From contig JBBRHF010000001.1 of the NCBI GenBank assembly GCA_038223055.1, positions 1 through 60,419 on the forward strand: a stretch of 60,419 bases of DNA, in the 5' to 3' direction. Positions 17,625-57,682 of this stretch are shown here, piece by piece. Every line of letters starts with the position of its first letter. The first letter of the stretch is position 1. The notes under the pieces were generated by a model that saw nothing but the letters and a program-made list of their open reading frames with translations, was not told where the DNA came from and did no database searches. Made by a program: the position numbers and the translations under genes. The stretch comes from Actinomycetes bacterium. GTDB taxonomy: Bacteria; Actinomycetota; Actinomycetes; JACCUZ01.

Positions 17625-17625
17625 G

Positions 17626-18456: not shown

Positions 18457-18509
18457 GATCTCTCTTTTCTCTCTGGGGCACACGGATGCCAGCAGGCAAA
18501 AGATGGTTG

Positions 18510-19796: not shown

Positions 19797-19842
19797 GTCA
19801 GCCCCGGCTTCCCGCGGGTCGGGGTCTGCATGCAGGGCCGGA

Positions 19843-23170
<3,328 letters not shown>

Positions 23171-23194
23171 GGACTGCTGCCTTCTTCCTCGGGG

Positions 23195-23230
23195 GAACGG
23201 CGGGACGGGTGGGAACGGCGGGACGGGTGG
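23195..23230. repeat. 18-bp direct repeat x2 in the reductase/beta-subunit intercistronic spacer
   Basis: gaacggcgggacgggtgg gaacggcgggacgggtgg, immediately 5' (in mRNA sense) of the beta-subunit RBS GAGGAAGAAGG. Confidence 0.85.
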
Positions 23231-23233
23231 GGG

Positions 23234-24277: not shown

Positions 24278-24365
24278 GCTTGGGGTCCTTGCTGGTCGGG
24301 GCTGGCCGGGGGGCTGGCCGGGGCTGGGGCTGGACGGGCGCGGGATCGTGTCGCCCGGTCAGGCA

Positions 24366-24397
24366 GGGTGGGATGGCGGAGATCCGCCATCCCACCC
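24366..24397. other. perfect GC-rich hairpin just downstream of the alpha-subunit stop
   Basis: gggtgggatggcgga-ga-tccgccatcccaccc has 15-nt arms that are exact reverse complements. Located 20 nt 3' of the TAG of the alpha-subunit gene, inside the operon. Confidence 0.8.
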
Positions 24398-24416
24398 CAG
24401 CCCTTCCGCTGTTGGA

Positions 24417-26060: not shown

Positions 26061-26270
26061 CGTTCTTTTTCCTTCCTCGGGCTGGGTTCCGTGAGGCGGG
26101 CCTGTGCGCCCGGGCGTTGGCGATCCGGCAGCCCGTCCCCGGTGCCGGGCTAAGCGGAACTGCCGTCGCCGTGCAAAAGTCATCACAACCCCTGACGTGA
26201 CCTTTGGCCGTCTCATTCTGAGATCTCCGTCACATTGCCGTTGCATACTCTTAACACGAGGGCTGGGTGG

Positions 26271-26310
26271 ACGGACGTGAGAACGGACGTAGAACGGACG
26301 TAGAACGGAG
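26271..26310. promoter_or_regulatory. about 3.5 tandem 11-12-bp direct repeats (ACGGACGT[AG]GA) in the divergent control region
   Basis: acggacgtgaga acggacgtaga acggacgtaga acggag. Ends 8 nt before the regulator GTG and lies about 210-250 nt upstream of the alpha-subunit start. Confidence 0.6.
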
Positions 26311-26318
26311 TTCCATAC

Positions 26319-30406: not shown

Positions 30407-30491
30407 AGACGGTGCTTCGGCCCGACCATGCCCAGCCTTGAGCGCCGGGCCAGTCCAGACGGTCTCCAGCGGGCGTCTGGCCTGGCGGGGA

Positions 30492-31340
30492 TCACCCAGA
30501 CCCGCTGACGCTTGCCTCGGGTTGCGCCTGCCGGGCCATGGCGATGGCCGCGCCGACGGTCAGCACGAAACCGGCCGCGGCCTCGGGGGCGTAACCGGGG
30601 CGGGCCGAATCCCCCAGCAACAGCAGGCCCACCGCCGCCGGGAGCACCGTCTCCACCGCGAAGTTGATTGCGACCGCGACCGTCACCGACCCGCGCTGCA
30701 GGGCGGCGGCGAACAACATCATCCCGAGCAGCCCATAGCCCGCCACGGCGTAGGCCAGCGGGTCGCCGGCGAGGTGCCACACCGGGTGGGGGACCACGAG
30801 GGACCTGGCGGCGATGCCCACCCCGCCGAACGCGGCGCCGGCGGCCACGGCGAGCGCCGGAACAGCGGCCCGGGGCGGCGTGCGGATGGCCAATGCGCCG
30901 GCCACCAGCACCACCGCGACTCCCGCCAGAACCAGCCACCCACCACGCGCAGAGAGCCGCTGCGCGGCGTCGGGCTGGGCGCTGGCCGCCAGCAGCACCA
31001 GACCGATCCCGAGCCCGGTCAGCGCGACCCAGTCCGCCGGGACCAGCCGCGCGCCGAGCAGCCGCCAGGCAAGGATGGCCGTGATCCCGACGCTGGACGC
31101 AATCGCGGCCTGCACGAGAAACAGAGGCAGCGAGCGCAAGGCGACCAGCGAGGCGAGGAACCCGATCCCGTCCAAGGCCAGACCCACGACGTACGGCGTC
31201 TGGCGGGTCAGCCGCCACACCAGCCCCAGGTCGAGCCCACCACGCACCGACTCGCGTCGCACCGCGACGGCCTGGCAGACCGAGGCCGCGCCATAGCACA
31301 GGGCGGCACCGGCTGCTCCGATGGCGGCAAGGACGACCAC
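30492..31340 (-). CDS. polytopic membrane protein (DMT/EamA-like topology, about 9-10 TM)
   Basis: Hydrophobic throughout with two similar halves. GTG start. Family assignment is tentative. Confidence 0.55.
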   Translation of the reverse strand: MVVLAAIGAAGAALCYGAASVCQAVAVRRESVRGGLDLGLVWRLTRQTPYVVGLALDGIGFLASLVALRSLPLFLVQAAIASSVGITAILAWRLLGARLVPADWVALTGLGIGLVLLAASAQPDAAQRLSARGGWLVLAGVAVVLVAGALAIRTPPRAAVPALAVAAGAAFGGVGIAARSLVVPHPVWHLAGDPLAYAVAGYGLLGMMLFAAALQRGSVTVAVAINFAVETVLPAAVGLLLLGDSARPGYAPEAAAGFVLTVGAAIAMARQAQPEASVSGSG

Positions 31341-31351
31341 CCTCGGACGCT

Positions 31352-37444: not shown

Positions 37445-37855
37445 TCACTCCTCCCGAGGGGGCGTCAGGATCGTGCAGGTCGGGCCACTCGCTCGCGAAA
37501 GCCGACGATCGAGGGTCACCAGGGGGGCCCCGAGCAGCTCAGCCAGCGCGACGTAGGACGCGTCGTAGGCGCTCAGTGTCTCGCGGAGCTCCCAAGCACG
37601 GTCGGCAAACGGATGGTAGGGCCAGAGCTGGAGCGGCAGCGAGAGCAGGTCGCGATGGGCGAGGGTCGCTTCGACCCGTTCCAAGCGGCCGGCAAGCTGG
37701 TGGCGCCGCAGGACGTTTGCGGTCTCGAACATCGCCAGCGTCGGCGTGGCGAGGAAGCCGTGCTCGGCGGTGGCCGCCACCCAGTCGCCGGTCGCCCCGC
37801 CATCGACGAGCAGCGCCACGATGGCCGAGGAGTCCAGGACGTAAGAACTCGTCAC
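37445..37855 (-). CDS. vapC: type II toxin VapC (PIN-domain ribonuclease)
   Basis: YVLDSSAIVALL (D8), FETANVL, YDASYVALAE and LVTLDRRL give the four conserved acidic PIN positions. GTG overlaps the antitoxin stop (GTGA). Confidence 0.85.
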   Translation of the reverse strand: MTSSYVLDSSAIVALLVDGGATGDWVAATAEHGFLATPTLAMFETANVLRRHQLAGRLERVEATLAHRDLLSLPLQLWPYHPFADRAWELRETLSAYDASYVALAELLGAPLVTLDRRLSRASGPTCTILTPPREE

Positions 37856-38088
37856 CGGCGCTCAGCGTCGCGGTCGGCCACGATGTCCGCCGCTGGGAGC
37901 ACCCGCCCAGACGCGCGCGCCCGAGTCCTGGCGCCCTGGAGCGCCGCAGCGACGTCGGGCCGCTCGGCCAGCTCGGCAAGCTGGGCCACGAGGTACTCCT
38001 GCAGGGAGCGGCCGGACCGGGAAGCGCGGGCGGCTAGCTCGTCTCGGACGTCATCGGGCACGTTCCTGATGGTGATCGCGACGGGCAT
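37852..38088 (-). CDS. vapB: type II antitoxin, ribbon-helix-helix (FitA/VapB-like)
   Basis: MPVAITIRNVPDDVRDELAARASRSGRSLQEYLVAQL is a typical Arc/RHH antitoxin N-terminus. Confidence 0.8.
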   Translation of the reverse strand: MPVAITIRNVPDDVRDELAARASRSGRSLQEYLVAQLAELAERPDVAAALQGARTRARASGRVLPAADIVADRDAERR

Positions 38089-38126
38089 GCCTGCATATTA
38101 ACTGCATTGCCGCCGAAATGCATGCC
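38084..38126. promoter_or_regulatory. inverted repeat / TGCA-rich candidate vapBC operator
   Basis: GGCATGC ... GCATGCC arms flank ctgcatattaactgcattgccgccgaaat, in a locally AT-richer stretch overlapping the vapB start. Confidence 0.3.
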
Positions 38127-38392: not shown

Positions 38393-38848
38393 TTACAGGT
38401 CGAACTCCGACGGCGCGATGCCCACCGCGTGGCACCCCTCGCGTACGGCCTTCTTCTCGTCCTCGTCGAAGTCGCCGTCCGCGCCGCCGATGATGATGCC
38501 GATCTGGATCACCGCGCGCCCCTGGTCCGGCTTGGCCTTGAGCTTGCTGATCCGCTGGATCGCCTCGACCTTGCCGAAGTCGTAGTCCGAGGAGAGCTTG
38601 TCGCAGTAGAAGGTGAACTGCTGCAGCAGGTCGGCCGCCGGAAAGATCGACAGGACGTCGTTGTTCGTGATGAGAGCCGCGACCTTCCGTCGCTCCTCGG
38701 CGTCGACCTTGCCGTCGGCCGCGGCGATCAACGCGCACATCGCCATCGTCGCCTGCGAGAAGTCCTTGTTCTTGAACTGCGACGTCTTGGTCTTCAACTG
38801 CGCGTTCATGTCGACGGAGCGCGCCTTGAGCTGGTCCCACAGAGCCAT
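38393..38848 (-). CDS. terB: TerB family tellurite-resistance protein
   Basis: ATMAMCALIAAADGKVDAEERRKVAALI ... VIQIGIIIGGADGDFDEDEKKAV shows the two ADG-x-xD-xxE TerB repeats. Confidence 0.85.
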   Translation of the reverse strand: MALWDQLKARSVDMNAQLKTKTSQFKNKDFSQATMAMCALIAAADGKVDAEERRKVAALITNNDVLSIFPAADLLQQFTFYCDKLSSDYDFGKVEAIQRISKLKAKPDQGRAVIQIGIIIGGADGDFDEDEKKAVREGCHAVGIAPSEFDL

Positions 38849-38943
38849 CTGCTGTCCCCTTCAGGTTGCGGGCCGCATCGTCGCGACCGCACCAGCATCG
38901 TCGCACCCCAGCGCCCGACATGCCGGACGGGCAAGATGTGACC

Positions 38944-40146
38944 ATGACCTCGCTGAGCAAGGGCTCCAACATCCCCCTGACCGCTCCCGCGCTGCGTGCC
39001 GTGCTGGGCTGGTCCGCCGGCGCGGCTGTCGACGTCGACGCCTCGGCGCTGCTGCTCACGAGCTCGGGCAAGGTCCGATCCGACGCCGACTTCGTGTTCT
39101 ACAACCAGCCCAGCGATGTGACCGGCGCCATCACCCACGTCGGAAAGCAGACCGCTGGGACCAACTTGACCGACACGGTGAGCGTGGACACCAGGCGGCT
39201 CGACCGGGACATCGAGCGGGTGATCTTCGCCGCGTCCGCGGACGGGGGGACGTTCGGCCAGGTTCCTGGGCTGCACCTGCGGCTCGAGGACGCCGGCAGC
39301 GGTGCCGAGCTGGCCCGGTTCGACATCCTGGACGCCACGAGCGAGACGGCATTCGTGTTCGGCGAGCTTTACCTGCGCAATGGCGCCTGGAAGTTCCGCG
39401 CGGTCGGGCAGGGCTACGCCTCTGGCCTGGCCGGGCTCGCCCGAGACTTCGGCATCAGCGTCGACGACGCGCCGGCCGTAGCCGTGCCGCCCGCTGCCGC
39501 GCCGCCCGCCGCCGCCCTACCAGCCCCTTCCGCCCCCCCAACCCCCTCGGCCCCTGCCGCCGGCGTGGTGAACCTCGACAAGGGCCGGGTGTCGCTGCGC
39601 AAGAACCAGACGGTCAGCCTGGTCAAGACCGGCGCTCCCCCGCTGTCCAAGGTGGTGATGGGGCTGGGCTGGGATCCCGCCAAGCACGGTCGCGACATCG
39701 ACCTGGACGCCTCCGTCATCTCCTACGACGCGTCCGGAGGCAAGATGGGCCTCGTCTGGTTCATGCACAAGTCGGACTACAGCGGCGCGATCCAGCACAG
39801 CGGCGACAACCTGACCGGTCAGGGCGGCGGCGACGACGAGCAGATCCAGGTCGACCTGGGCGCGCTGCCCGCCGCCGTGACCCACCTTGTGTTCACCATC
39901 AACAGCTTCACCGGACAGAACTTCACCGAGGTGCGCAACGCCTACTGCCGCCTTCTCGACCCCACGAACACCGAACTGGTCCGCTACGACCTGTCGGCCG
40001 GCGAGGCGCAGACCGGCGTCTTGATGGCCCGCCTGAGCCGGACGCCGGACGGCACGTGGACGATGAGAGCGCTCGGCGAGTTCCACAAGGGCAGGACCGT
40101 GAAGGCGATGACTGACCCCGGCTCCCGTGCCGTCCTGGCCGGCTAG
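38944..40146 (+). CDS. tandem double-TerD-domain protein (TerA-like) with Pro/Ala linker
   Basis: Domain 1: LSKGSNIPL...VDVDASALLL...DADFVFYNQ...[22 protein letters not shown]. Linker: PPAAAPPAAALPAPSAPPTPSAPAA. Domain 2: VNLDKGRVSL...GLGWD...DIDLDASVI...HSGDNLTGQGGGDDEQI. Confidence 0.85.
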   Translation: MTSLSKGSNIPLTAPALRAVLGWSAGAAVDVDASALLLTSSGKVRSDADFVFYNQPSDVTGAITHVGKQTAGTNLTDTVSVDTRRLDRDIERVIFAASADGGTFGQVPGLHLRLEDAGSGAELARFDILDATSETAFVFGELYLRNGAWKFRAVGQGYASGLAGLARDFGISVDDAPAVAVPPAAAPPAAALPAPSAPPTPSAPAAGVVNLDKGRVSLRKNQTVSLVKTGAPPLSKVVMGLGWDPAKHGRDIDLDASVISYDASGGKMGLVWFMHKSDYSGAIQHSGDNLTGQGGGDDEQIQVDLGALPAAVTHLVFTINSFTGQNFTEVRNAYCRLLDPTNTELVRYDLSAGEAQTGVLMARLSRTPDGTWTMRALGEFHKGRTVKAMTDPGSRAVLAG

Positions 40147-40154
40147 CCGGCCAG
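40135..40154. other. perfect 20-bp palindrome centred on the TerA-like stop codon
   Basis: CTGGCCGGCTAGCCGGCCAG is its own reverse complement. The TAG at 40144-40146 is the stop. Confidence 0.9.
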
Positions 40155-40278
40155 CGGCTCACCCTCCACGACCGGCCAGTCCGCCTCGGCGACGGTAGAC
40201 TGTGCCAGGTTGCCGCACGGGTGACATGACTTTGCTCGCGGGGCAGCACGGCTCCCGAGCGTGACTCTGGAGGACTAC

Positions 40279-40860
40279 ATGGGTGTTTCGCTGACCAAGG
40301 GCGGGAACGTCAGCCTCACCAAGCAGGCCGGTTCCGCTGGCCTGGCCGCGGTGACCGTCGGTCTGGGCTGGGATGTTCGCACGACCACTGGCACCGACTT
40401 CGACCTCGACGCCAGCGCCATCGTCGCCAAGGCCGACGGCAAGGTGCTCAGTGACAAGCATTTCATCTTCTTCAACAACCTCAAGAGCCCCGAAGGCGCC
40501 GTCGAGCACACCGGGGACAACCTCACCGGCGAGGGCGAGGGCGACGACGAGCAGATCAAGATCACCTTCGCTGCCATCCCGGCCGAGGTCGACAAGATCG
40601 TTTTCATCTGCTCGATCTACGAAGCCGAGGCTCGCTCGCAGAGTTTCGGTCAGGTCCGCAACGCCTTCATCCGCGTCGTGAACCAGGCCGACAGCGCCGA
40701 ACTGGGCCGCTACGACCTGTCCGAGGACGCCTCGACCGAGACCGCGATGGTCTTCGGCGAGGTCTACCGAAACGGCGCGGAGTGGAAGTTCCGGGCCGTC
40801 GGTCAGGGTTACGCCTCCGGTCTGCGGGGCATCGCCCAGGACTTCGGCGTCGTCGTCTAG
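40279..40860 (+). CDS. terD: TerD family stress protein
   Basis: [15 protein letters not shown]...[21 protein letters not shown]...[30 protein letters not shown]...[34 protein letters not shown]. Confidence 0.9.
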
Positions 40861-40982
40861 GCGATCGCCCGGCCGACCGCACCGGCCCCCAGGAAACTTC
40901 ACCGGCCCAACATCACAACATTGGGTGAACAACACCACGCAGGAGATCCCTGGACGTGGCAATAACTGGAGGATTGGTCTAC

Positions 40983-41558
40983 GTGAGCGTCTCGTTGCAA
41001 AAGGGCGGAAACGTCAGCCTGACCAAGGCTGCGCCCAACCTCGTCTCGGTGCTCGTCGGTCTGGGCTGGGACGTCCGCACCACGACCGGAGTGGACTTCG
41101 ACCTCGACGCCAGCGCGATGATGTGCGCCGAAGGCGGCAAGGTGCTCTCGGACCAGCACTTCGTCTTCTTCAACAACCTCAAGAGCCCCGACGGCTCGGT
41201 CGAGCACACCGGGGACAACCTCACCGGTGAGGGCGAGGGCGACGACGAGGCCATCAAGGTGGCGCTGACCACGGTGCCGGCCAACGTCGTCAAGATCGTG
41301 TTCCCCGTCTCCATCTACGAAGCCGAGGCACGCTCGCAGAACTTCGGGCAGGTGACAAACGCGTTCATCCGCGTCGTCGACTCATCCAACGGCACCGAAC
41401 TTGCCCGCTACGACCTCACCGAGGACGCCTCCACCGAGACGGCCATGGTCTTCGGTGAGCTCTACCGGCACAACAGCGAGTGGAAGTTCCGCGCCATCGG
41501 TCAGGGCTACGCCTCCGGCCTGCGGGGCATCGCCGCGGACTACGGCGTCTCCGTCTGA
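40983..41558 (+). CDS. terD: TerD family stress protein (close paralog of the preceding gene)
   Basis: [15 protein letters not shown]...[21 protein letters not shown]...[30 protein letters not shown]...[26 protein letters not shown] start with the same CTGGAGGA leader as 40279. Confidence 0.9.
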
Positions 41559-41640
41559 CGGTCCGCAGGCGCGGTCTATCCCCTGGGGAACGTCGGGGCG
41601 GTGACCGTTCGTCTTCTGCACACATGGAAAGGAATACACT

Positions 41641-42705
41641 GTGCTGCTTCGCACCTTCGGCTGGTCGTGGGGCGTCACCGCCGCCACCCTCGCCGGCGCC
41701 CTGATCCTTGGCGGGCCGCAGGCCTTCGCCATCGTGGCAATCCTCGCGGTCCTGGAGATCTCGCTGTCGTTCGACAACGCGGTGGTGAATGCCACGATCC
41801 TCGAGCGGATGAACGAGTTCTGGCAGAAGATCTTCCTTACCATAGGCATCGTCATCGCGGTGTTCGGCATGCGGCTGCTCTTCCCGCTGCTCATCGTGGG
41901 CATCACCGCCAAGCTGAGCCCCTACGCCGCGGTCGACCTGGCCCTCAACGACGGCAAGCAGTACGGCGAGCTGCTGCGCGCCGCGCACCCCACCATCGCG
42001 GCGTTCGGCGGCACATTCCTGCTGATGCTGTTCCTGGACTTCATCTTCGAGGACCGCGAGACCAAATGGCTCACCTGGCTGGAGAAGCCTCTCGCCCGGG
42101 TCGGCAAGCTGGACCAGCTCTCCGTCGTTGTCTCCCTGGTGACTCTCGTGATCGCAGCCGAGACCCTCGCCGAGAAGCCCGCCCCGGTCATGGTCGCCGG
42201 CGCCCTCGGCGCCGTGACTTACCTCGCCGTTAACGGGCTCGGTGAGCTGTTCGAGAGCCAAGGCAGCCACGACACCGGACCCAACTCACTCGTGAAGGCG
42301 TCCGGCAAGGCGGCCTTCTTCCTGTTCCTCTACCTCGAGGTGCTCGACGCGTCCTTCAGCTTCGACGGTGTCATCGGCGCATTCGCCATCAGCAACAACA
42401 TCTTGATCATCTCGGCGGGCCTCGGCGTGGGCGCGATGTACATCCGGTCCCTCACGGTCTACCTCGTGCGACAGGGCACGTTGAACGACTACGCCTTCCT
42501 GGAGCACGGCGCGCACTGGGCGATCGGAGCACTGGCCGCGATCATGCTGGTCAGCATCGGGCACGAGGTCCCCGAGCTGGTCACCGGCCTGCTCGGGGTG
42601 GGCTTCATCGGGGCGGCCTTCCTGTCCTCGCTCGGCCTGAACAAGCGGCGGGCAACGGAGGAGGCGGCCGAAGCCAGCACGGAACTCCAGACCACCCGCA
42701 GCTAG
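41641..42705 (+). CDS. DUF475 / TerC-like integral membrane protein
   Basis: AILAVLEISLSFDNAVVNA and a second LEVLDASFSFDGVIGAFA half give the duplicated (S)FDN/FDG motif of the TerC/DUF475 superfamily. Polytopic. GTG start with GGAAAGGA RBS. Confidence 0.8.
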   Translation: MLLRTFGWSWGVTAATLAGALILGGPQAFAIVAILAVLEISLSFDNAVVNATILERMNEFWQKIFLTIGIVIAVFGMRLLFPLLIVGITAKLSPYAAVDLALNDGKQYGELLRAAHPTIAAFGGTFLLMLFLDFIFEDRETKWLTWLEKPLARVGKLDQLSVVVSLVTLVIAAETLAEKPAPVMVAGALGAVTYLAVNGLGELFESQGSHDTGPNSLVKASGKAAFFLFLYLEVLDASFSFDGVIGAFAISNNILIISAGLGVGAMYIRSLTVYLVRQGTLNDYAFLEHGAHWAIGALAAIMLVSIGHEVPELVTGLLGVGFIGAAFLSSLGLNKRRATEEAAEASTELQTTRS

Positions 42706-42769
42706 TCAGAACGTGTCGCCGGGCTGCTCATCGCCCTGGTGAGCCGCAACTCAGGACTGGGAGATCTCC

Positions 42770-43468
42770 ATGGGAATCGACTACACCAAGCGTGCCGCCA
42801 GCAGCGACGCGACGCCGAGCAACGCTGCGCCCGCGGGCGGGGTCAACCTGAGCAAGGTGGTCCTGACCAAGTCCGCACCCACGGTGTCGCTCACCAAGTC
42901 CGGCTCCGCGACCGGTCTGCTTCGGGTCAACCTGAACTGGAACGCCCGCCCCGCCCAGAGTGGCGGCGGGGGCTTCTTCAAGCGGGTCCGTGGTGGCGGC
43001 TCGATCGACCTGGACCTCGGTTGCCTCTACGAGTTCACCAACGGGAAGAAGGGCGTCGTGCAGGCGCTCGGCAACGCGTTCGAGGCGCGTGGTGACGCCG
43101 GCACCCCGGTCATCCGGCTCGACGGCGACGACCGGTCCGGCACGAACAGCGCAGGAGAAAACCTGATCATCGATCTGTCCCAACTGGCGATGATCAAGCG
43201 CATCATCGTGTTCGCGTTCATCTACGAGGGCGTGGCCAACTGGGCGCAGGCCGACGGTGTCGTCACGCTGTTCCCGCAGAACGGCCCGCAGGTCGAGGTC
43301 CGTCTCGACGAGGCACAGAACGGCACACCGATGTGCGCCATCGCGCAGTTCGTCAACACCGGCGGCGAGTTGTCGCTCAACCGCGAGGTCCGCTACATCA
43401 ACGGCGGGCAGGACAAGCTGGACGCCGCCTACGGCTGGGGCATGGACTGGAGCCCGGGGCGCAAGTAA
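42770..43468 (+). CDS. divergent TerD-fold protein (TerD/TerZ/TerX-like)
   Basis: GVNLSKVVLTK...VSLTK...IDLDLGCLYE...VIRLDGDDRSGTNSAGENLIIDL...IIVFAFIYEG retains the TerD strand pattern and acidic Ca-site-like DGDDRSG, but is far from the two canonical copies. Confidence 0.7.
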   Translation: MGIDYTKRAASSDATPSNAAPAGGVNLSKVVLTKSAPTVSLTKSGSATGLLRVNLNWNARPAQSGGGGFFKRVRGGGSIDLDLGCLYEFTNGKKGVVQALGNAFEARGDAGTPVIRLDGDDRSGTNSAGENLIIDLSQLAMIKRIIVFAFIYEGVANWAQADGVVTLFPQNGPQVEVRLDEAQNGTPMCAIAQFVNTGGELSLNREVRYINGGQDKLDAAYGWGMDWSPGRK

Positions 43469-43512
43469 CCGCTGACCGGCACCCGCACAATCTGATCGGC
43501 GAAAGGATCGCC

Positions 43513-44703
43513 ATGCGTCACTTCGCCCACCTGTCCGAGTTCGACCTCTCCCGGTTGTTCCACCTCGCGCCCGAGCCGATCACCTGCGACAGCGATCGCG
43601 AGACCCTCGCGGTCGCGCTCGGAGCCACCCTCTACATGCCGGCGACCCGGCCCGCGCTGGCGGCCGACATCGCCAAGCAGGCGGGCCTGGGCGTCGTCAG
43701 CGTCGTCGCGTGCCTCGAGGACGCCATCGCGGACGACGACGTACCTGCCGCGCAGGCCAACGTCATCGCCCAGTTGCGGCTGCTCGGTCAGGCCGGGAGC
43801 GCGGTCGCCTTGCCGCTGGTGTTCGTGCGGGTGCGTCACCCCGACCAGGTGGCCGCGATCACCAACGGTCTCGGCGAGAACATTGCGGTTCTCCGCGGCT
43901 TCGTCGTGCCCAAGTTCAGCGACGTCAACGGCGCGAGCTACCTCACCGCGGTCGTCGAGGCCTCCGCCGCACACGACCGGCACCTCTACGTCATGCCAGT
44001 TCTGGAGTCCCCCGAGATCGCTTACGCCGAGACCCGCGCAGCCCAGCTGGCCGGGGCACACCGCCTGCTCTCCCGGTTCCGCGAACACGTCCTCGCCGTA
44101 CGCATCGGCGCGACCGACCTGTGCGGGGCCTACGGCATCCGGCGCGACCGGGACCTGACCATCTACGACGTGCGGGTCGTGGCCGACGCGATCACCGACA
44201 TCGTGAACACGTTCGGCCGAGCCCGTCGCGACGGGTTCGTCGTCACCGGACCCGTGTGGGAATATTTCCCGAACCACGACCGCATCTTCAAGCCGCAACT
44301 GCGGGAGAGCCCCTTCACCGACAACGCCGTCCGCCCGCTGCGCCAGCAGCTTTTGCTGGCCGACCTGGACGGCCTCATCCGGGAGATCCTGCTGGACAAG
44401 GCCAACGGCCTGACCGGAAAGACGGTCATCCATCCGACCCACGTGGCCGCGGTCCACGCGATGAGCGTCGTGTCCCACGAGGAATACAGCGACGCGCTGG
44501 ACATCCTCGGGGCCGACCTGGCCGGCGGGGGCGTGGCGCGATCCGGCTACCGGAACAAGATGAACGAGGCGAAGCCGCACCGGGCCTGGGCCGAGCGCAC
44601 GGTGCGCCGCGCCCACGTGTTCGGGGTCGCCGCGGAGGGGATCACCTTCATCGATCTGCTCGCCACCAGCGTCGAGTCGATCCTGGCGCAGGAAGCCGCG
44701 TGA
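43513..44703 (+). CDS. HpcH/HpaI aldolase / citrate-lyase-beta-like TIM-barrel C-C lyase (Ter-associated type)
   Basis: ATG at 43513 (RBS GAAAGGA). LGATLYMPATRP...VVACLEDA...VRIGATDLCG...GKTVIHPTHV is the CitE/HpcH-like motif order. Confidence 0.7.
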   Translation: MRHFAHLSEFDLSRLFHLAPEPITCDSDRETLAVALGATLYMPATRPALAADIAKQAGLGVVSVVACLEDAIADDDVPAAQANVIAQLRLLGQAGSAVALPLVFVRVRHPDQVAAITNGLGENIAVLRGFVVPKFSDVNGASYLTAVVEASAAHDRHLYVMPVLESPEIAYAETRAAQLAGAHRLLSRFREHVLAVRIGATDLCGAYGIRRDRDLTIYDVRVVADAITDIVNTFGRARRDGFVVTGPVWEYFPNHDRIFKPQLRESPFTDNAVRPLRQQLLLADLDGLIREILLDKANGLTGKTVIHPTHVAAVHAMSVVSHEEYSDALDILGADLAGGGVARSGYRNKMNEAKPHRAWAERTVRRAHVFGVAAEGITFIDLLATSVESILAQEAA

Positions 44704-47387
44704 GCGACCTGTCCGGCCCGGAAGTCTGGTCCGGACAGTGGGTCACGGATCGGCTCGACCTGACCGTGACCGGCGCCGCCCGGCCGGGCCCGGTGACCGT
44801 GCGGGACCTGGTGGGTCTGGCCGTCCGTCGCAACCCCCGGCGCGCCCACCTGCTCGTCTCGAGGGTCCTCGGCAAGCACCTGCCGGCCAGCCCCGCACTG
44901 GTCTACGGCTCCGGGCTGCTGCTGGGCGCGATGACCGCCACCGCGCTCGGCGGCGAACCCACCGCTGCAATCGCCCCGCTCGGTGCCGCGCTGCGCGCCG
45001 CGTTGCGCCCGCCCGGCGGCCGTGACGCGGGCAGCGATGGTCAGGACAGCGACGGTGACGACGGCAACGGTGACCAGGCCGCCACCCGCTTGCTGGCCCT
45101 GACCCGAGCCGTCACCCGGCCCAACATCAGCCCGGCGCCCGTCGTCCTTGGCTACGCCGAGACCGCGACCGGCCTCGGGCATGCCGTCGCCGACGCCCTC
45201 CGCGCGCCCTACCTGCACTCCACCCGCCGGCCGGTCCGTGGCGTCACGCCCGTCGGCGCCTTCGAGGAGGAACACTCGCACGCCACCAGCCACCTGCTGC
45301 TGCCCGAGAACCGGGGCCTGCTGGCCGGGCCCGGCGCGCTCGTCCTCGTCGACGACGAGCTGACCACCGGTACGACGGTGCGCAACACCATCACCGCGCT
45401 GCACGCAGCCTTTCCTCGTGACCACTACGTCGTCGCAGCTCTGGTCGACCTGCGCAACCCGACCGACCGCGCCCGGCTGACCTCCCTGGCGACCGAGCTC
45501 GGGGTGGTCATCGAGGTCGTCGCGCTGGCCACTGGACACCTCGGGCTGCCCTGCGACGCAGCGGCGCGGGGGATCGAGCTGGTCGCGGCGGTCGAGGCCG
45601 CCGCCGCGGTCGGGGCCGCCGCTGTCCGCATCCGGCGCGACGACGAGCCGGCATCGGCGGGCGGGCTGGCGCGCCGGGTCTGCCTCGACTGGCCCACCGA
45701 CCTGCCCGACGGCGCGCGACACGGTTTCAGCCCCGGGCACCGCGCCCGGCTCGAGGGTGCCTTGCCCGCGCTTGGCGCCGCGCTGGCCGGGCAGCTCGCC
45801 CTTCCACCCGGCGCCAGCGTGCTCGTGCTGGGGACCGAGGAGCTGATGTACGCCCCGCTGCGGCTGGCCGAGGCACTCGCTGCGCAGGTCGGGCCCGGCG
45901 TGCGGGTCCGCTACTCCACCACGACCCGGTCCCCGGTCCACCCGGTCGACGACCCCGCCTACGCGATCCGCACCCGCCTGGAGTTCAGCGCGCACGACAA
46001 CCCGGCCGACGGCCCCGGCCCGCGCTACGCCTACAACGTGGCGCCCGCCGCGGGCGACGGCCGGTTCGACACGGTCATCGTGGTGGTCGACCAGGTCGGC
46101 GACACCGACGCGTTGCACAGCCCGCTCGGCCTGCTCGCCCGGCTGGCCACCGTCACCGACGACGTCGCCCTGGCGGTGATCCCCAGCTACCGCCCCGCGA
46201 CGACGTACGCCGGCGGGGTGGCCCTGCCCAGCCCGCTGCGAGGCCCAGCGTTCGGCTCATACGACCGAGACGAGGTCGGGTGGCTGCTCACCGACCTGTC
46301 CGGCGCGGCGCTGGAGGCGCCGACGGAGGAGCGCGAGGAGGCAATCCAGGCCGGCGGCGCGCACTACGCCGAGTCCCTGCCGGTGGAATACCAGCCGTCA
46401 CCGGACTACCAGCGGCTGTTCCACGAGTCCCTGGAGGCCTCCGCCGAGAGGGTGGCGCACGCGGTCGGGGTGCTGACGGAGTCCGCGCTGGCCGCGCGCG
46501 GTGAGCACGCCGTGCTGGTCAGCCTGGCCCGGGCCGGGACCCCGATCGGGGTCCTGATGCGCCGCTGGGCCCAGCACACCCGCGGGGTCGACCTGGCGCA
46601 CTATGCCGTGAGCATCGTGCGCGGCCGGGGCATCGACCCCGTCGCCCTGCGCTACCTTGCGACCCACCACGACCCGGGCGAGGTCATGTTCGTCGACGGG
46701 TGGACCGACAAGGGCGCCATCACCCGCGAGCTCGCCGCCGCCCTCGCGGTCCACGCCGAGCGCACCGGCGAACGCTTCAACTCCCAGCTCGCGGTGCTGG
46801 CCGACCCGGGCCGCTGCGTCGAACTGTTCGGCACCCGCGAGGACTACCTCATCCCGTCGGCCTGCCTGAACTCCACCGTGTCCGGGCTGGTGAGCCGCAC
46901 GGTGCTCAACGACACCCACCTTGCGCCCGGCCAGTTTCACGGCGCCAAGTTCTATGCCGACCTCGCGGCCGCGGATGTGTCCAACGCGTTTCTGGACGCG
47001 GTCAGCGCCCGGTTCGCCGATGTCGCCGAAGCCGTGCGCAAGGAGATCGACCGGCGCGCCGGCCAGGTCCCGGAGGACCCGACCTGGGACGGCTGGCGGG
47101 CGGTGGAGCGGATCAGCCGCGACTACGGCATCGGCGATGTCAACCTGGTCAAGCCCGGCGTCGGCGAGACCACCCGGGTGCTGCTGCGCCGGGTCCCGTG
47201 GAAGGTCCTCGTCAGTGACACGGCCGGCGATCTGCGCCACATCCGGCTGCTCGCGGCGCAGCGCGGCGTCCCGGTCGAGGCGGTGTCCGGCCTGCCCTAC
47301 AGCTGTGTCGGGCTGATCCACCCGAACTTCACCCGCGGCGCCACCGGCGCCGACGGGATCGCCGTCGGCGCCGCGGCGACGACGTGA
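44700..47387 (+). CDS. three-module fusion: phosphoribosyltransferase + TRSP domain + StiP-like (second PRTase-like + PELOTA-like C-terminus)
   Basis: GTG overlaps the HpcH stop (GTGA). LVLVDDELTTGTTVRN (PRTase PRPP loop), VLVLGTEELMYAPL...YSTTTRSPV (TRSP signature), then EEREEAIQAGGAHYAESLP...VMFVDGWTDKGAI...LIPSACLNSTVSGL...VNLVKPGVGETTRVLLRR. 895 aa with no internal stop. Confidence 0.75.
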   Translation: MSDLSGPEVWSGQWVTDRLDLTVTGAARPGPVTVRDLVGLAVRRNPRRAHLLVSRVLGKHLPASPALVYGSGLLLGAMTATALGGEPTAAIAPLGAALRAALRPPGGRDAGSDGQDSDGDDGNGDQAATRLLALTRAVTRPNISPAPVVLGYAETATGLGHAVADALRAPYLHSTRRPVRGVTPVGAFEEEHSHATSHLLLPENRGLLAGPGALVLVDDELTTGTTVRNTITALHAAFPRDHYVVAALVDLRNPTDRARLTSLATELGVVIEVVALATGHLGLPCDAAARGIELVAAVEAAAAVGAAAVRIRRDDEPASAGGLARRVCLDWPTDLPDGARHGFSPGHRARLEGALPALGAALAGQLALPPGASVLVLGTEELMYAPLRLAEALAAQVGPGVRVRYSTTTRSPVHPVDDPAYAIRTRLEFSAHDNPADGPGPRYAYNVAPAAGDGRFDTVIVVVDQVGDTDALHSPLGLLARLATVTDDVALAVIPSYRPATTYAGGVALPSPLRGPAFGSYDRDEVGWLLTDLSGAALEAPTEEREEAIQAGGAHYAESLPVEYQPSPDYQRLFHESLEASAERVAHAVGVLTESALAARGEHAVLVSLARAGTPIGVLMRRWAQHTRGVDLAHYAVSIVRGRGIDPVALRYLATHHDPGEVMFVDGWTDKGAITRELAAALAVHAERTGERFNSQLAVLADPGRCVELFGTREDYLIPSACLNSTVSGLVSRTVLNDTHLAPGQFHGAKFYADLAAADVSNAFLDAVSARFADVAEAVRKEIDRRAGQVPEDPTWDGWRAVERISRDYGIGDVNLVKPGVGETTRVLLRRVPWKVLVSDTAGDLRHIRLLAAQRGVPVEAVSGLPYSCVGLIHPNFTRGATGADGIAVGAAATT

Positions 47388-48988
47388 CCAGCCGCCTGGC
47401 CCTGGCCATCGAGGCGGCCGAGTTGACTGTCCCCGGCCTCTGCCTGCCGCGCGTGCGCCCCGCGGGGCCAACCATGGTCGCCGCGGTCGACCTGGACCGC
47501 ACCCTCATCTATTCCGCCGCCGCGCTCGACCTGCCGGGGGAGGACGCCGACGCGCCGGAGATGGTCGTCGCCGAGGTCTACCAGGGGGCGCCCCTGTCGT
47601 TCATAACGGCCACCGCGGTGACGATCCTCGCGGGCCTGTGCGAGGTCGCGCAGGTGGTGCCCACCACGACGCGCACCCGGGCACAGTACGCCCGGGTGAA
47701 GGTTCCCGGTCGGCCGCACCGATACGCGGTCACCGGCAACGGCGCCCACGTGCTCGTCGACGGCCGGCCCGACCCGGAGTGGTCCGCAACCGTCGCGGCG
47801 CTGGTCGCGGCGCACTGCGCCCCGCTGGCCGAGGTGGTCACCCACCTGGAGAAGACGTTCCTCGACGAGTTCACCAGAACCCGAAGGGTCGCCGAGGACC
47901 TGTTCGCCTACGTCGTCCTGACCCGGCGCGACCTGCTCCCGCTCGATCTGGTGCCCACGCTGGCCGCGTGGTGCGCGCCGCGTGGCTGGTCCGTGTCGCT
48001 GCAGGGGCGCAAGGTCTACTGCGTCCCCCGGCCACTCACGAAGACCGCGGCCATCGCGGAGATCGCCCGCCGCGAGGATACGACCCATGTCGTGGCGAGT
48101 GGCGACTCGCTGCTCGACGGCGAGTTGATGGACGCTGCCGACGAGGGCGTTCGACCGGCGCACGGGGAGCTGCACGAAACCGGCTGGACCAGGCCGCACG
48201 TGGTCATCACCGGAGCGGCCGGTGTAGTCGCCGGCGAGGAGATCGCGGCCCGCCTGCTCGCGGCCGCGCTCACCGGGTCGGTCCTCGGGGCGCGGGCCTC
48301 AGTCCGCGGACCCGGAGAAAAGGCCGCCCAGGCCCGTCCCGGTCTTTTTGTCACCCGCGCCGGCGTTCTTCGCCAGGGCCTTGGCAAGCGCCTCGATGGT
48401 GACCGACTGCAAGATGACCTGCCCGTCGCCCTCCAGCGTCGCCAGCGACAAGCCCTCGCCGCCGAACATCGCGTTCATCGCGCCCGCCCGATTGAAGCCG
48501 CCGACCCGCTCGACGCCGTAGCGGATGTTCTGGTCCCAGGCCACGACACACCCCGTGTCGACCTTGAGACGCCCGCCGTAGTCGGCCGGGTTGATGTCGA
48601 TGAAATCACCCGCTCCGGCGACCAGCAGCGTCCCGACTCCGGTGAACTTCTCCAGCACGAAGCCCTCGCCCCCGGAGAACCCGGCCCGCCCGCCCATGAA
48701 CGCCACGTCGAAGCGGACCCCGGCCTCGGCGGCGACGAATGCGTCCTTCTCCGCGAACCAGGTGGTGCGCCCGTCGAGTTCGAGCGCCCGCATCTCGCCC
48801 GGCACGACGCCGGCCAATCCCAGCAGCCCGTCCCCCCCGCGGGTGTGGAAGTGGGTGAACGCGAACGACTCTCCCGCGAGCACCCGCTTCCCGGCGTCGA
48901 CTGCCCCGCGCAGCATGCCGCCCAGACCTCCGCCGGAGCCACCACCGCCGAGCAGCCCACCGCCACCGCCGCCCGAGCCCCCCGGTGA
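47384..48988 (+). CDS. HAD-superfamily hydrolase (Ter-associated); ORF has no stop until 48988 and runs antisense into the next gene
   Basis: GTG overlaps the upstream stop (GTGA). AAVDLDRTLIY (DxDxT motif I), VVPTTTRT (motif II), ASGDSLLDGELM (motif IV). HAD-like sequence ends around 48290; the remaining ~230 codons are antisense to the AIM24-like gene. Confidence 0.6.
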   Translation: MTSRLALAIEAAELTVPGLCLPRVRPAGPTMVAAVDLDRTLIYSAAALDLPGEDADAPEMVVAEVYQGAPLSFITATAVTILAGLCEVAQVVPTTTRTRAQYARVKVPGRPHRYAVTGNGAHVLVDGRPDPEWSATVAALVAAHCAPLAEVVTHLEKTFLDEFTRTRRVAEDLFAYVVLTRRDLLPLDLVPTLAAWCAPRGWSVSLQGRKVYCVPRPLTKTAAIAEIARREDTTHVVASGDSLLDGELMDAADEGVRPAHGELHETGWTRPHVVITGAAGVVAGEEIAARLLAAALTGSVLGARASVRGPGEKAAQARPGLFVTRAGVLRQGLGKRLDGDRLQDDLPVALQRRQRQALAAEHRVHRARPIEAADPLDAVADVLVPGHDTPRVDLETPAVVGRVDVDEITRSGDQQRPDSGELLQHEALAPGEPGPPAHERHVEADPGLGGDECVLLREPGGAPVEFERPHLARHDAGQSQQPVPPAGVEVGERERLSREHPLPGVDCPAQHAAQTSAGATTAEQPTATAARAPR

Positions 48989-49144
48989 GGCCGCCGAGTC
49001 GGGCTGGGACAGCTTGGTCTCCATCACGACATCGCCCGAGCAGAACAGGAACTTGCCGGCCTCGCTGTAGACGACCTGCCCGGGAGACAGGGTCAGCACG
49101 GCCATCTTCGTAGTCGCCCCGACCAGCTGGACCTGCAGCGTCAC
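48299..49144 (-). CDS. AIM24/TIGR00266 (DUF124) family protein with internal Gly-rich insert
   Basis: GTG at 49144 overlaps the upstream stop (GTGA). LSPGQVVYSEAGKFLFCSGDV...GESFAFTHF...GEGFVLEKFTGVGTLLVAGAGDFIDI...VDTGCVVAWD...GEGLSLATLEGDGQVILQS. Insert: SPGGSGGGGGGLLGGGGSGGGLGG. Confidence 0.75.
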   Translation of the reverse strand: MTLQVQLVGATTKMAVLTLSPGQVVYSEAGKFLFCSGDVVMETKLSQPDSAASPGGSGGGGGGLLGGGGSGGGLGGMLRGAVDAGKRVLAGESFAFTHFHTRGGDGLLGLAGVVPGEMRALELDGRTTWFAEKDAFVAAEAGVRFDVAFMGGRAGFSGGEGFVLEKFTGVGTLLVAGAGDFIDINPADYGGRLKVDTGCVVAWDQNIRYGVERVGGFNRAGAMNAMFGGEGLSLATLEGDGQVILQSVTIEALAKALAKNAGAGDKKTGTGLGGLFSGSAD

Positions 49145-50409
49145 CGCTTCCCCCCTCGCTCGGCGCGAACCTCCGAGACCACCGTAGCGACCGTGTCGGC
49201 GATCGCGCTCAGCTCGGTCAGGAACGCCCAGTAGTCCGGGTGCGGTCCCCTGACGGCCGTCGTTGCGCGCTCCAGCCGGTCCACCAGCGCGTCCAACCGA
49301 ACTGCCCACCGGGCCCGCGTCCCGGGAGCGTCGGCGCCCGCCATCACCAGTCGCTGCGCGTCGCGCAAACCGAAACGGACCTTGGCGATACGGGCCGACG
49401 GGTCGTTCGCCGCCTCATACAGCGCAGTAAGTCGCTCGGCCACCGCCCGCCCGCGGCTCTCCGCGTTGCCCAGCGCCGCGGTCGCCTCGCGCAGGGCCTC
49501 CATCGCCGTGTCGTAGTCCCCTGCCGCGGCCGCCGTCGCGGCCTGCTCGCGCAACCGGGTCGCCTCCTGCGCGCGCTGGCGCATCGTGGCCGCGGCGGTC
49601 GCGACGTCCTGCCAGCAGATCTCGCTGTAGCCGCGCCGCAACTGGCTCAGCCCCGCCTCGACGGCCGGGATCCGGTTCGCGAGCGCCTCATTGCGGGTCC
49701 GCAGCGACGACACGCGGCGGGCCACCTCGTCCCGCTTGCGCGGGAGGTCCTGGGCGAGTGCGCTGGCGCGTTCGGCGAGCGAGGCCACGTGCTCGGCCTG
49801 GCGCAGCGTGCCGGCGATTCCGAGCACCTCAGCACCCCCCACGAGGATCTGCGCACCGGCCTGCGCGCCGGCCAGGGCGTCACCGGCCAGGCCGGGCCGC
49901 AGCCCTTGGTGATCGAGGTCGGCGACGGCCGACTCGGCCCGGTCCAGCGCCGACCGGGCCGCAGCCACCTGGGGGCTCAGCTGCGCCAGCGCCGGCCCGA
50001 CCCGGGCGAACTCGCCGTCGTGACGCTGGCGAAACTCCTCGATCTGGCGTTCGGCCTGGTCCAGCGTGCCCGCGACCTGGCGCAGCGCCATTTCGGCCTC
50101 TTGCAGTGCCCGCTTCGGTTGGTGTGCCTCGACGTCGTAGCGGTCCAGGGTCTCGATGTAGGCCCGCGCCACGTCGTCGCAGTGCCCGTTCACTGCTTCG
50201 AACTCGGCCCGGATCTGGCTGGCCGACGCCGACCCCGAGAACAACCTGGTGTAGCTGTCGACCTGGCGGTTGGTGTCCTGCTGGGTCCGATCCATCCGGT
50301 AGAAGGCCTCCGCCGCACCATCGCGCGCCTCCCGGGCATCCAGCGGCGGGTTCCGCCGCCGCCCGGGCTCGCCCGCCCACGGGGTCGGCGCGTTCGGCGT
50401 TCGACTCAC
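49141..50409 (-). CDS. hypothetical all-helical/coiled-coil protein (422 aa)
   Basis: GTG start. Long heptad-like, Ala/Arg/Glu/Gln-rich segments. Translationally coupled to the AIM24-like gene. No family recognised. Confidence 0.55.
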   Translation of the reverse strand: MSRTPNAPTPWAGEPGRRRNPPLDAREARDGAAEAFYRMDRTQQDTNRQVDSYTRLFSGSASASQIRAEFEAVNGHCDDVARAYIETLDRYDVEAHQPKRALQEAEMALRQVAGTLDQAERQIEEFRQRHDGEFARVGPALAQLSPQVAAARSALDRAESAVADLDHQGLRPGLAGDALAGAQAGAQILVGGAEVLGIAGTLRQAEHVASLAERASALAQDLPRKRDEVARRVSSLRTRNEALANRIPAVEAGLSQLRRGYSEICWQDVATAAATMRQRAQEATRLREQAATAAAAGDYDTAMEALREATAALGNAESRGRAVAERLTALYEAANDPSARIAKVRFGLRDAQRLVMAGADAPGTRARWAVRLDALVDRLERATTAVRGPHPDYWAFLTELSAIADTVATVVSEVRAERGGKR

Positions 50410-50561: not shown

Positions 50562-50633
50562 GCCGGAGTGGCGCAGTGGTAGCGCAGCCGCCTTGTAAGC
50601 GGCAGGTCGTCGGTTCGAACCCGACCTCCGGCT
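50562..50633 (+). tRNA. tRNA-Thr (anticodon UGU)
   Basis: GCCGGAG-TG-GCGC-AGTGGTA-GCGC-A-GCCGC-CTTGTAA-GCGGC-AGGTC-GTCGG-TTCGAAC-CCGAC-CTCCGGC-T folds into a complete cloverleaf. CCA is not encoded. Confidence 0.9.
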
Positions 50634-50839
50634 CGCCCGGCCCATCTCACCGCGCGGAAAGCCGCCGGCAACCTGCCGGACATGCGCCTCGGGCAGGATG
50701 AGCAGCAGGTCGGCCGCCGCTCGCACGACTGAGCAACCTGACCGCGAGCTGCCCTCAGGGCAAGACCCCGAGGTGCCGATCCCTGCCTTGACACATCCGC
50801 CCCACACAGCCGTGCACGCACGGCCGCACAGGAGAGACG

Positions 50840-56388: not shown

Positions 56389-56593
56389 GGTAACAATTGG
56401 GTGACGGCTGATGGGCCCGAAGTGCCACGTCGTACCCAGGCCCTCGTACGACGGACGCCGCCCGATGTCGCCTGGACGCCGGTCCACCTGGGCGGTATAT
56501 GGTCGGTCTCGCCAACCGCCTGGACCCGTCCGGGACAGGCGCCCCTTAACTCGGATCGTCCGGCACGTTCCTGCCGGTGAAGGGAGTGCGGTC

Positions 56594-57682
<1,089 letters not shown>

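Follow-up and report, generated by a model that had tools for sequence, protein, structure and literature searches.

The 60,419-nucleotide stretch of DNA analysed here (the window; contig JBBRHF010000001.1 of an Actinomycetes bacterium) has a G+C content of about 70% and carries, 38 kb and 11 kb from the two contig ends, a Ter (tellurite resistance) gene cluster that is physically and translationally coupled to a lyase/phosphoribosyltransferase (PRTase)/HAD phosphatase module, as a preliminary description of this DNA had proposed. A comparative-genomics model of the Ter-linked lyase/PRTase/HAD module was reportedly put forward by Anantharaman, Iyer and Aravind in 2012. Genes were called by combining the list of open reading frames (ORFs) with a frame analysis of third-position GC content (GC3), which separates the real genes from many spurious ORFs; domains were called by Pfam scans over all likely genes of the window, with NCBIfam and PDB-sequence profiles as additions. 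The TerB gene lies on the minus strand and diverges from a plus-strand run made up of a double TerD, two single TerD proteins, a DUF475/TerC protein, a TerA-like protein, a C-C lyase, a PRTase fusion and a HAD phosphatase, and no opposite-strand gene breaks this run from the double TerD through the HAD gene. Both the divergence of TerB and the uninterrupted run had been noted beforehand and are borne out by Pfam and the gene calls, and Pfam likewise upholds the earlier assignments of the double TerD, the DUF475/TerC protein and the C-C lyase. The genes of the cluster are the following.

38393..38848, minus strand: TerB (Pfam TerB, E 1.3e-24), divergent, with a 95-bp upstream region in common with the plus-strand run
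38944..40146, plus strand: two-domain TerD protein, 400 aa (Pfam TerD in two stretches, E 3e-90)
40279..40860, plus strand: TerDa, single-domain TerD (Pfam TerD, E 9.5e-82; canonical motif)
40983..41558, plus strand: TerDb, single-domain TerD (Pfam TerD, E 1.1e-85; canonical motif)
41641..42705, plus strand: DUF475/TerC-family integral membrane protein (Pfam DUF475, E 3.6e-127, and TerC, E 1.1e-17; NCBIfam PRK14013.1-3, E 1.6e-156)
42770..43468, plus strand: TerA-like, divergent TerD-family protein, 232 aa (Pfam TerD, E 0.0098, sub-threshold; metal motif degenerate)
43513..44703, plus strand: C-C lyase (Pfam C-C_Bond_Lyase PF15617, E 7e-122), a Ter-associated TIM-barrel enzyme on the CitE / acyl-CoA-lyase beta-chain branch
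44700..47387, plus strand: PRTase_2-TRSP-StiP-PELOTA_1 fusion, 895 aa (four Pfam domains)
47384..48988, homologous part to about 48275, plus strand: HAD-IIB phosphatase (profile against PDB 6CJ0/6D3V, E 2.3e-17)

A purine-rich ribosome-binding site precedes each of the start codons at 38944, 40279, 40983, 41641, 42770 and 43513, and the two remaining junctions are GTGA stop/start overlaps, one joining the lyase stop to the start of the PRTase fusion (44700-44703) and the other the stop of the fusion to the start of the HAD gene (47384-47387); both overlaps are present in the sequence as first described. A promoter scan found none, terminator-like sites numbered 3 against 4.3 expected and lie every one inside ORFs, and the 38-49 kb region contains neither an Rfam family nor an obvious structured RNA. 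Over 38-44 kb the G+C content is slightly lower, at 0.66-0.68.

Pfam scores are far over threshold for TerB, TerD, DUF475, the lyase and the fusion, the exception being the 232-aa protein. TerB is 70% identical to the TerB of a metagenome locus, L084. Four TerD domains in three proteins exceed the Pfam threshold, with E-values from 1e-81 to 3e-90, and the five TerD domains counted in the preliminary description do correspond to five TerD-fold domains, of which three are canonical and carry GDNLTGxGxGDDE (TerDa, TerDb and the C-terminal domain of the double TerD) and two are degenerate, the TerA homologue being one of them. In the double TerD, a motif scan located the calcium-binding-type motif GDNLTGQGGGDDE in the C-terminal domain only, the N-terminal domain being without it; a motif of the form GDNxTGxGxGDDE is what we take to be the calcium site of TerD proteins. 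The double TerD as a whole is 63% identical to a 396-aa TerD protein of L084, and its N-terminal domain shares 69% identity with the TerD portion of a Motilibacter TerD-vWA protein.

The two single-domain TerD proteins had been called near-identical, which overstates a protein identity of 74% in pairwise alignment. TerDa is 77-81% identical to the first TerD of the Streptomyces loci and TerDb 69-75% identical to the second; because each is nearer its Streptomyces counterpart than the other, they represent an old paralogous pair whose members have separate Streptomyces orthologues. The claim that both have identical CTGGAGGA leaders holds for the short sequence itself, which stands at 40267 before TerDa and at 40966 before TerDb; it is a Shine-Dalgarno site, that is, a ribosome-binding site, and apart from it the two leaders are dissimilar. 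CTGGAGGA was also considered as a special common leader and rejected in this role, as it is not enriched (5 occurrences in the window against 2.3 +/- 1.6 expected, and five or more in 10 of 100 shuffles) and its flanks are dissimilar.

The 232-aa protein had been described as a divergent TerD. It is of the TerD family, with a sub-threshold match, and judged by its sequence it is specifically a TerA homologue: in tblastn it is 43-45% identical, over 90% of its length, to the annotated terA of enterobacterial and Pseudomonas plasmids. It is also 58% identical to a 'tellurium resistance' gene on a Mycobacteroides plasmid. TerA homologues were found by tblastn on 2615 plasmids, and a TerA-like gene is present in 79 of the related loci fetched for comparison.

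The enzyme operon and its domains

The three genes downstream of the TerA homologue encode enzymes whose domains fall in the Ter-specific Pfam families PF15617, PF15609, PF12500, PF11202 and PF15608, and their association with Ter genes extends well beyond the window. Relatives were sought in one genome per species, which yielded at least 590 loci encoding the fusion, and the best 80 of these were kept. The enzyme genes adjoin TerD genes in every related locus examined, in line with the co-occurrence anticipated in the preliminary description. Stop/start overlaps also recur: of 83 related loci, 59 have the PRTase stop within a GTGA or ATGA, and 39 have the lyase stop so placed. Across at least several hundred genomes and three phyla, gene content, gene order and these overlaps are conserved. 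TelA, TerB, ATP-grasp and vWA genes vary among the loci, and the link of the enzyme operon to genes of TerD and the TerC family is invariable.

The first enzyme belongs to the CitE branch of the HpcH/CitE superfamily, because a profile of 13 lyase sequences searched against the PDB matches CitE, the acyl-CoA lyase beta chain and malyl-CoA lyase (E 2e-8 to 4e-5) and NCBIfam gives weak RipC/CitE matches.

The second is a four-domain protein consisting of PRTase_2 (PF15609, residues 37-279, E 1.2e-63), TRSP (PF12500, residues 337-473, E 3.1e-36), StiP (PF11202, residues 519-768, E 1.3e-101) and PELOTA_1 (PF15608, residues 796-874, E 8e-34). The first three had been recognised as a PRTase-TRSP-StiP protein, and the C-terminal PELOTA_1 domain had been missed. 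Homologues of the fusion number 5749 at E <= 1e-5, with the same four Pfam domains in all of those listed. A profile of the fusion has no significant match among PDB sequences. The PRTase_2 domain retains the loop LVDDEFSTG, which by eye reads as a classic binding loop for phosphoribosyl pyrophosphate (PRPP), and the TTTRSP motif is invariant. Since the same parts are separate genes on a Pseudomonas aeruginosa plasmid (CP109686), the actinobacterial fusion is two proteobacterial proteins joined. The StiP-PELOTA half probably corresponds to the second, Pelota-bearing PRTase in the 2012 model, an equation that draws on secondary sources.

To place this second half of the fusion (within 46254-47387), an AlphaFold model of StiP with PELOTA was built from a 35-sequence alignment covering two phyla, Actinomycetota and Pseudomonadota. 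The model has a mean predicted local distance difference test score (pLDDT) of 80.8 and a predicted template modelling score (pTM) of 0.86, to be compared with a pLDDT of 58.5 and weak Foldseek matches for an earlier model of StiP alone built from 12 close sequences. In Foldseek, the StiP core of the newer model is best matched by type I PRTases; the yeast and human hypoxanthine-guanine phosphoribosyltransferases are found with a probability of 0.97-1.00 (2xbu, 1.00), and PyrR with a template modelling score of 0.48-0.49 on the target (1ufr, 0.49). The C-terminal PELOTA domain is matched by L7Ae, Snu13 and eS12 proteins at a probability of 1.00, and there are no proteases in the top 50 matches for the StiP and PELOTA model. 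The StiP core has a loop, VFVDGWT(G/D)KGA, in which the window has D where its relatives have G; this loop keeps what we take to be one of the two acidic residues of the usual PRPP-binding loop. On the strength of the model, StiP would thus have a PRTase-like fold followed by an L7Ae-like PELOTA domain.

The third enzyme has no match in Pfam or NCBIfam, and its earlier identification as a HAD protein is right by profile: built from the window protein and 11 homologues, the profile matches 6CJ0 and 6D3V over about 240 residues with HAD-type motifs aligned. It has 3069 homologues of 266-355 aa, many of them named 'HAD family hydrolase', which occur in Cellulomonas, Sporichthya, Motilibacter, Actinomadura and Streptomyces. 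In an alignment of 12 sequences, D36, D38, T40, T95, T96, K210, G240, D241, S242 and D245 are invariant; assigned by eye, D36-x-D38-x-T40 would be motif I, and T95/T96, K210 and G240-D241-S242-x-x-D245 would also be HAD catalytic motifs. The homology stops at about residue 297, near nucleotide 48275. The 237 further codons to 48988 are antisense to a convergent gene of the AIM24 family and are without homologues. Position 48988, given in the preliminary description as the end of the feature, is a mechanical ORF end and not the end of a functional domain, because homology ends at about 48275 and a stop codon is missing. In a metagenome locus, L085, the HAD gene ends with TAG 12 nucleotides before the AIM24 stop, and the window has GGTCCTC in place of GGAGTAG. 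Either a sequence error or a genuine stop-loss, which would give a tailed or non-stop product, could account for the missing stop.

Proposed chemistry and competing explanations

As a whole, the locus is best explained, with a probability of about 0.8, as a chromosomal actinobacterial Ter stress-response cluster in which a metal/calcium and membrane part is joined to a coupled three-gene enzyme operon. The identity of the system is very probable; the outline of the chemistry has about even odds. In this outline, the TerD paralogues, TerA and TerB would form a metal- or calcium-binding assembly with the TerC-family membrane protein. The PRTase_2-TRSP half of the fusion would use PRPP to attach phosphoribose to a base-like or acid acceptor, the carbon skeleton of which may be made or trimmed by the CitE-type lyase, unless this enzyme shapes the product instead. 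The HAD-IIB phosphatase would then remove the sugar phosphate, leaving a riboside, a 'nucleoside-like' small molecule. The PRTase-like StiP and the L7Ae-like PELOTA domain may catalyse a second PRPP-dependent step or bind nucleotide or RNA for regulation. The riboside, finally, would signal to, or protect through, the complex of TerB, TerD and the TerC-family protein under envelope, metal or phage stress. Lacking the ATP-grasp amidoligase and the second HAD protein found in the proteobacterial version, the actinobacterial set should yield a simpler, unligated product. A further elaboration, offered tentatively and more probably wrong than right, is that the actinobacterial operon represents the minimal Ter enzyme set, with a PRTase-fold, RNA-linked StiP and a HAD protein that finishes a riboside messenger or protectant read by TerB and TerD, and that the AIM24-family protein and its coiled-coil neighbour, described below, are further components.

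A number of points weigh against the overall explanation. CitE-type lyases normally act on acyl-CoA (coenzyme A) thioesters, and the cluster contains no CoA ligase or transferase. The PADLOC defence models match no Ter protein of the locus. For StiP, no Foldseek match attains an E-value of 0.001, and hhalign finds no sequence similarity between StiP and PRTase_2, so that its interpretation as PRTase-like depends on the modelled fold and on visually recognised motifs. StiP has moreover been named a protease by experiment, according to the account of Reichert 2013 given in PMC11994780. The 35-sequence two-phylum alignment has no invariant cysteine column, and a cysteine close to the LADP motif sits two positions apart in the two phyla; the 'cysteine protease' label is doubtful, not refuted, and probably misleading. 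The chemistry of the module is a prediction at every step and for every member, and the details of the 2012 model used here come from secondary summaries (PMC11994780, PMC7824862, PMC8115787). Literature searches found no identification of the Ter metabolite. The preliminary description had presented the function as open in the literature, and papers of 2021 and 2025 do still call it unknown (PMC8115787, PMC12054061).

The best-surviving alternative, though unlikely, is that the enzyme operon is an RNA-directed device in which PELOTA docks on a structured RNA (an mRNA leader, rRNA or an element resembling a K-turn) while StiP acts as a sensor like PyrR, whose PRTase fold serves in RNA binding and nucleotide sensing, or the protein takes part in RNA ribosylation. 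It would account for the presence of PELOTA_1 with its L7Ae/Snu13/eS12-type fold (Foldseek probability 1.00) and for PyrR structures among the best matches of the StiP core, and a StiP loop with only one of the two acidic residues usual in the PRPP loop would fit binding and not catalysis. Against this, the 38-49 kb region offers no Rfam family or obvious structured RNA for such a device to read, the N-terminal PRTase_2 keeps LVDDEFSTG, read as the classic PRPP loop, and a sugar-phosphate phosphatase and a lyase always stand in the same operon, which is a better fit to small-molecule synthesis.

Somewhat less likely again is that the operon produces an antiviral nucleoside analogue, the locus being mainly an anti-phage island whose TerD/TerC part senses membrane or ion perturbations linked to infection. 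S. coelicolor TerD genes affect development, which counts against such a dedicated role, and so does the conserved chromosomal position of the cluster in essentially all Streptomyces loci examined, unlike that of patchy defence islands; none of the components matches the PADLOC models. The idea draws on the inhibition of phages by enterobacterial ter operons (PMC12054061, PMC8115787), on the view of authors from the Aravind group that the PRTase/HAD part produces a signal under threat and on their finding of Ter systems in jumbo phages (PMC7824862), and on the VapBC pair and the tRNA-Thr gene that flank the present locus.

Much less probable is that the HAD protein is a genuine trehalose-6-phosphate phosphatase (TPP) and that the module makes trehalose or another compatible solute. 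The suggestion comes from the nearest solved homologue, 6CJ0, deposited as a 'trehalose phosphatase', and from a P. aeruginosa extrachromosomal TPP assayed in vitro as such (PMC6838324), which we infer to be one and the same protein as 6CJ0. The genomic setting of 6CJ0 speaks otherwise: it is 99.6% identical to the product of a gene at 11995-12753 of the P. aeruginosa plasmid CP109686, located inside a Ter module, with the PRTase gene on one side and the StiP gene on the other, and without a trehalose-6-phosphate synthase in the vicinity. Homologues of 6CJ0 are found on 2559 plasmids, mostly of Klebsiella, Escherichia, Enterobacter and Salmonella, the same hosts as for the TerA homologues. The open papers searched contained nothing linking TPP or 6CJ0 to tellurite-resistance clusters. 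Since trehalose-6-phosphate, with its bulky anomeric substituent, resembles a 5-phosphoribosyl-1-X compound, the TPP activity of 6CJ0 may be promiscuous and its physiological substrate may not be trehalose-6-phosphate. The window HAD, for its part, has no match to Pfam Trehalose_PPase even at E 0.1. True OtsA (Glyco_transf_20, 4518-6281, plus strand) and OtsB (Trehalose_PPase, 10413-11501, minus strand) genes are encoded elsewhere in the window, and the existence of this separate pair argues that the Ter HAD is not the trehalose phosphatase of the cell.

That the enzyme genes are mere neighbours of the Ter genes, with no functional link, is scarcely credible, as the linkage survives rearrangements in Streptomyces, Cellulomonas, Motilibacter, metagenome lineages, Pseudomonas plasmids and Bacillus, and as the Pfam families concerned are Ter-specific.

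Neighbouring genes of the window

Two genes downstream of the HAD gene, on the opposite strand, recur near Ter clusters elsewhere.

48299..49144, minus strand: AIM24/TIGR00266-family protein (Pfam AIM24, E 1.8e-50), convergent on the HAD gene
49141..50409, minus strand: conserved coiled-coil protein, 422 aa, with weak EzrA-like repeats, co-operonic with the AIM24 gene
Counterparts of the AIM24 and coiled-coil genes in related loci: L083, 1191-2414; L084, 1250-2065; L085, 6906-8555

The GTG start of the AIM24 gene overlaps the stop of the upstream coiled-coil gene in a further GTGA at 49141-49144. The Ter clusters of L084 and L085 each have an adjacent AIM24 copy, 78-80% identical to that of the window. 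In 72-74 of the fetched loci a homologue of the coiled-coil protein lies no more than 10 kb from the enzyme operon, a count (mostly Streptomyces) much of which shared ancestry within that genus could explain; a homologue is also found directly upstream of TerD in Motilibacter, and another in L085. Weak EzrA matches were obtained for 12 of 13 members of the coiled-coil family. Because the adjacency persists though the position relative to the cluster differs between lineages, the AIM24-family and coiled-coil proteins may be undescribed accessory components of the Ter cluster. The coiled-coil protein was separately considered as a hidden TelA and rejected, hhalign being negative and the PDB profile returning only generic coiled coils.

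Beyond the coiled-coil gene lies a tRNA-Thr(TGT) gene (50562-50634, plus strand), and just before TerB lies a VapB/VapC pair (a ribbon-helix-helix and a PIN protein; 37445-38097, minus strand). Upstream of the Ter region, besides this pair, are two ABC exporters and two HAMP/GGDEF-EAL proteins (28223-33493). A soluble di-iron monooxygenase cluster occupies 19846-26327 on the minus strand, with two Phenol_Hydrox subunits, a reductase and an adjacent Cpn60-type chaperonin; a GAF/AAA+/Fis-type regulator (26304-28124, plus strand) stands beside it, and a second Cpn60 is encoded at 86-2116. Stress and metal genes lie at 14938-20000 (two universal stress proteins, a nitroreductase and an Nramp metal transporter of MntH type). 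Between the OtsA and OtsB genes are a GT4 glycosyltransferase, a PIG-L deacetylase, an LPG_synthase_TM protein and a PAP2 protein.

Two RNA elements were detected outside the Ter region. An S-adenosylmethionine (SAM) riboswitch (3630-3769, minus strand, 62.8 bits) lies inside the mechanically called ORF 2228-3961, so that the start of the pyridoxal-phosphate (PLP) enzyme gene must be downstream of it. An msiK element, of a kind typical of Actinomycetota, is located at 56534-56589 (plus strand, 51.6 bits), at the 5' end of the stop-to-stop ORF (56405-57682) of a MalK/MsiK-type ABC ATPase.

Conservation and comparison with known Ter systems

Ter clusters are widespread, being found on plasmids of pathogens, in Bacillus and in nearly all Streptomyces, and they affect resistance to tellurite, metals, colicins and phages. 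The system was described in 2012 and is present in thousands of genomes; the present locus is an ordinary further copy of it and not a system of a new kind. Pfam scans of all likely genes of the 60-kb window detected no ATP-grasp, TelA, vWA, kinase or PP2C domain, and tblastn of the window with ATPgrasp_Ter (two references), TelA (two references), TerD-vWA and HAD-IB found none of these, the TerD-vWA reference matching through its TerD part only. The preliminary observation that the window lacks ATP-grasp, TelA and TerY genes is thus sound; its presentation as a noteworthy compact variant is not, the same core without ATP-grasp and TelA being standard in Streptomyces, Kitasatospora, Actinacidiphila and Motilibacter. 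In the Streptomyces and Motilibacter loci, ATP-grasp and TelA were not found within 10 kb either. Nor is the locus an especially tractable place to look for the metabolite, as had been suggested: its best named relatives are only about 60% identical, and cultured model strains with the same module are for this reason better test beds. What the comparison does define is a minimal conserved set, consisting of a CitE-type lyase, PRTase_2-TRSP, a PRTase-like StiP with an L7Ae-like domain and a HAD-IIB phosphatase. It also provides two leads useful for designing the biochemistry of the Ter metabolite, namely that for one member of the Ter HAD family, known as a 'trehalose phosphatase', both crystal structures and an in vitro sugar-phosphate phosphatase assay exist, and that 'cysteine protease' is probably a misleading label for StiP.

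The nearest well-represented relatives are the clusters of Streptomyces, Kitasatospora and Actinacidiphila, in which, by tblastn with the window proteins, about 76 of the 80 loci have one order, the exceptions being short contigs: TerD, TerD, DUF475, TerA-like, an opposite-strand TerD, lyase, fusion and HAD. They share with the window the same seven-gene core in the same order, with protein identities of about 40-80%, and a coiled-coil homologue nearby. They differ in the opposite-strand TerD between the TerA-like gene and the lyase and in having no TerB within 10 kb, whereas in the window that TerD-family gene is two-domain and sits at the head of the plus-strand cluster, TerB is divergent beside it, and the AIM24 gene abuts the HAD gene. 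The Streptomyces cluster presumably corresponds to the tdd7/tdd8 region of S. coelicolor. Elsewhere among Actinomycetota, the lyase-fusion-HAD operon is accompanied by TerD, DUF475 and TelA in Cellulomonas edaphi and by TerD, DUF475 and a TerD-vWA protein in Motilibacter.

Two metagenome relatives of the window show how this arrangement varies. L084 (ENA ERZ27297427) has the lyase-fusion-HAD operon together with TerB (70% identical), the double TerD (63%) and AIM24 (78%); unlike the window, it also has ATPgrasp_Ter and TelA, and its double TerD is on the opposite strand before the lyase. L085 (Logan SRR28386208), the second-closest relative by HAD identity, encodes DUF475, TerA-like, lyase, PRTase, StiP-PELOTA and HAD proteins, as well as the convergent AIM24 and coiled-coil pair, at 58-94% identity. 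It is unlike the window in that PRTase_2-TRSP and StiP-PELOTA are two ORFs with a 4-nucleotide overlap (3440-6075), by a secondary split or an assembly indel, and in that its HAD gene has a normal TAG stop. The only lineage-specific feature, common to the window and L085, is a rearrangement by which the double TerD and TerB come to stand at the head, so that nothing interrupts the plus-strand run.

In Pseudomonadota, the ter island of plasmid CP109686 (terZABCDE type) has orthologous PRTase_2+TRSP, HAD-IIB, StiP+PELOTA_1 and lyase genes, TerD paralogues, a TerA remnant, TerB and a TerC-family gene. It reads ATPgrasp_Ter, further on PRTase_2+TRSP, HAD, StiP+PELOTA_1, PF15617 lyase, HAD-IB and TerD, and continues after an insertion sequence (IS) element with TerB, TerC, TerD and TerD. 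In contrast to the window, PRTase_2-TRSP and StiP-PELOTA are separate genes with the HAD gene between them, the lyase comes after and not before them, an ATPgrasp_Ter ligase and a second HAD protein (HAD-IB) are added, the membrane protein is annotated as TerC/Alx-family and not DUF475, and the island is plasmid-borne. Of the proteins with solved structures, its HAD protein (6CJ0, 6D3V and 6D3W) is most closely related to the window HAD, and it holds the equivalent place in the Ter enzyme module; the two are only about 24% identical, and 6CJ0 has been characterised as a TPP in vitro.

In Firmicutes, the published ter cluster of Bacillus altitudinis 3W19 comprises an antisense terB, three terD genes, terC, lyase, PRTase, StiP and HAD genes, and then yceG and telA (PMC11994780). 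It resembles the window in the antisense terB, the three terD genes, the TerC-family gene, the lyase of HpcH/CitE type, the PRTase, StiP and HAD genes and in doing without ATP-grasp; it differs in its separate PRTase and StiP genes and in the YceG and TelA genes after HAD, and the published description mentions no double TerD or TerA-like gene (PMC11994780). According to a summary of the 2012 analysis, the biosynthetic module exists in two-enzyme and five-enzyme forms (PMC11994780); the ATP-grasp amidoligase belongs to the five-enzyme form only, and modules of two to three enzymes that lack it are recognised. Set beside these systems, the locus is the common actinobacterial short form of a known system and not a special case.

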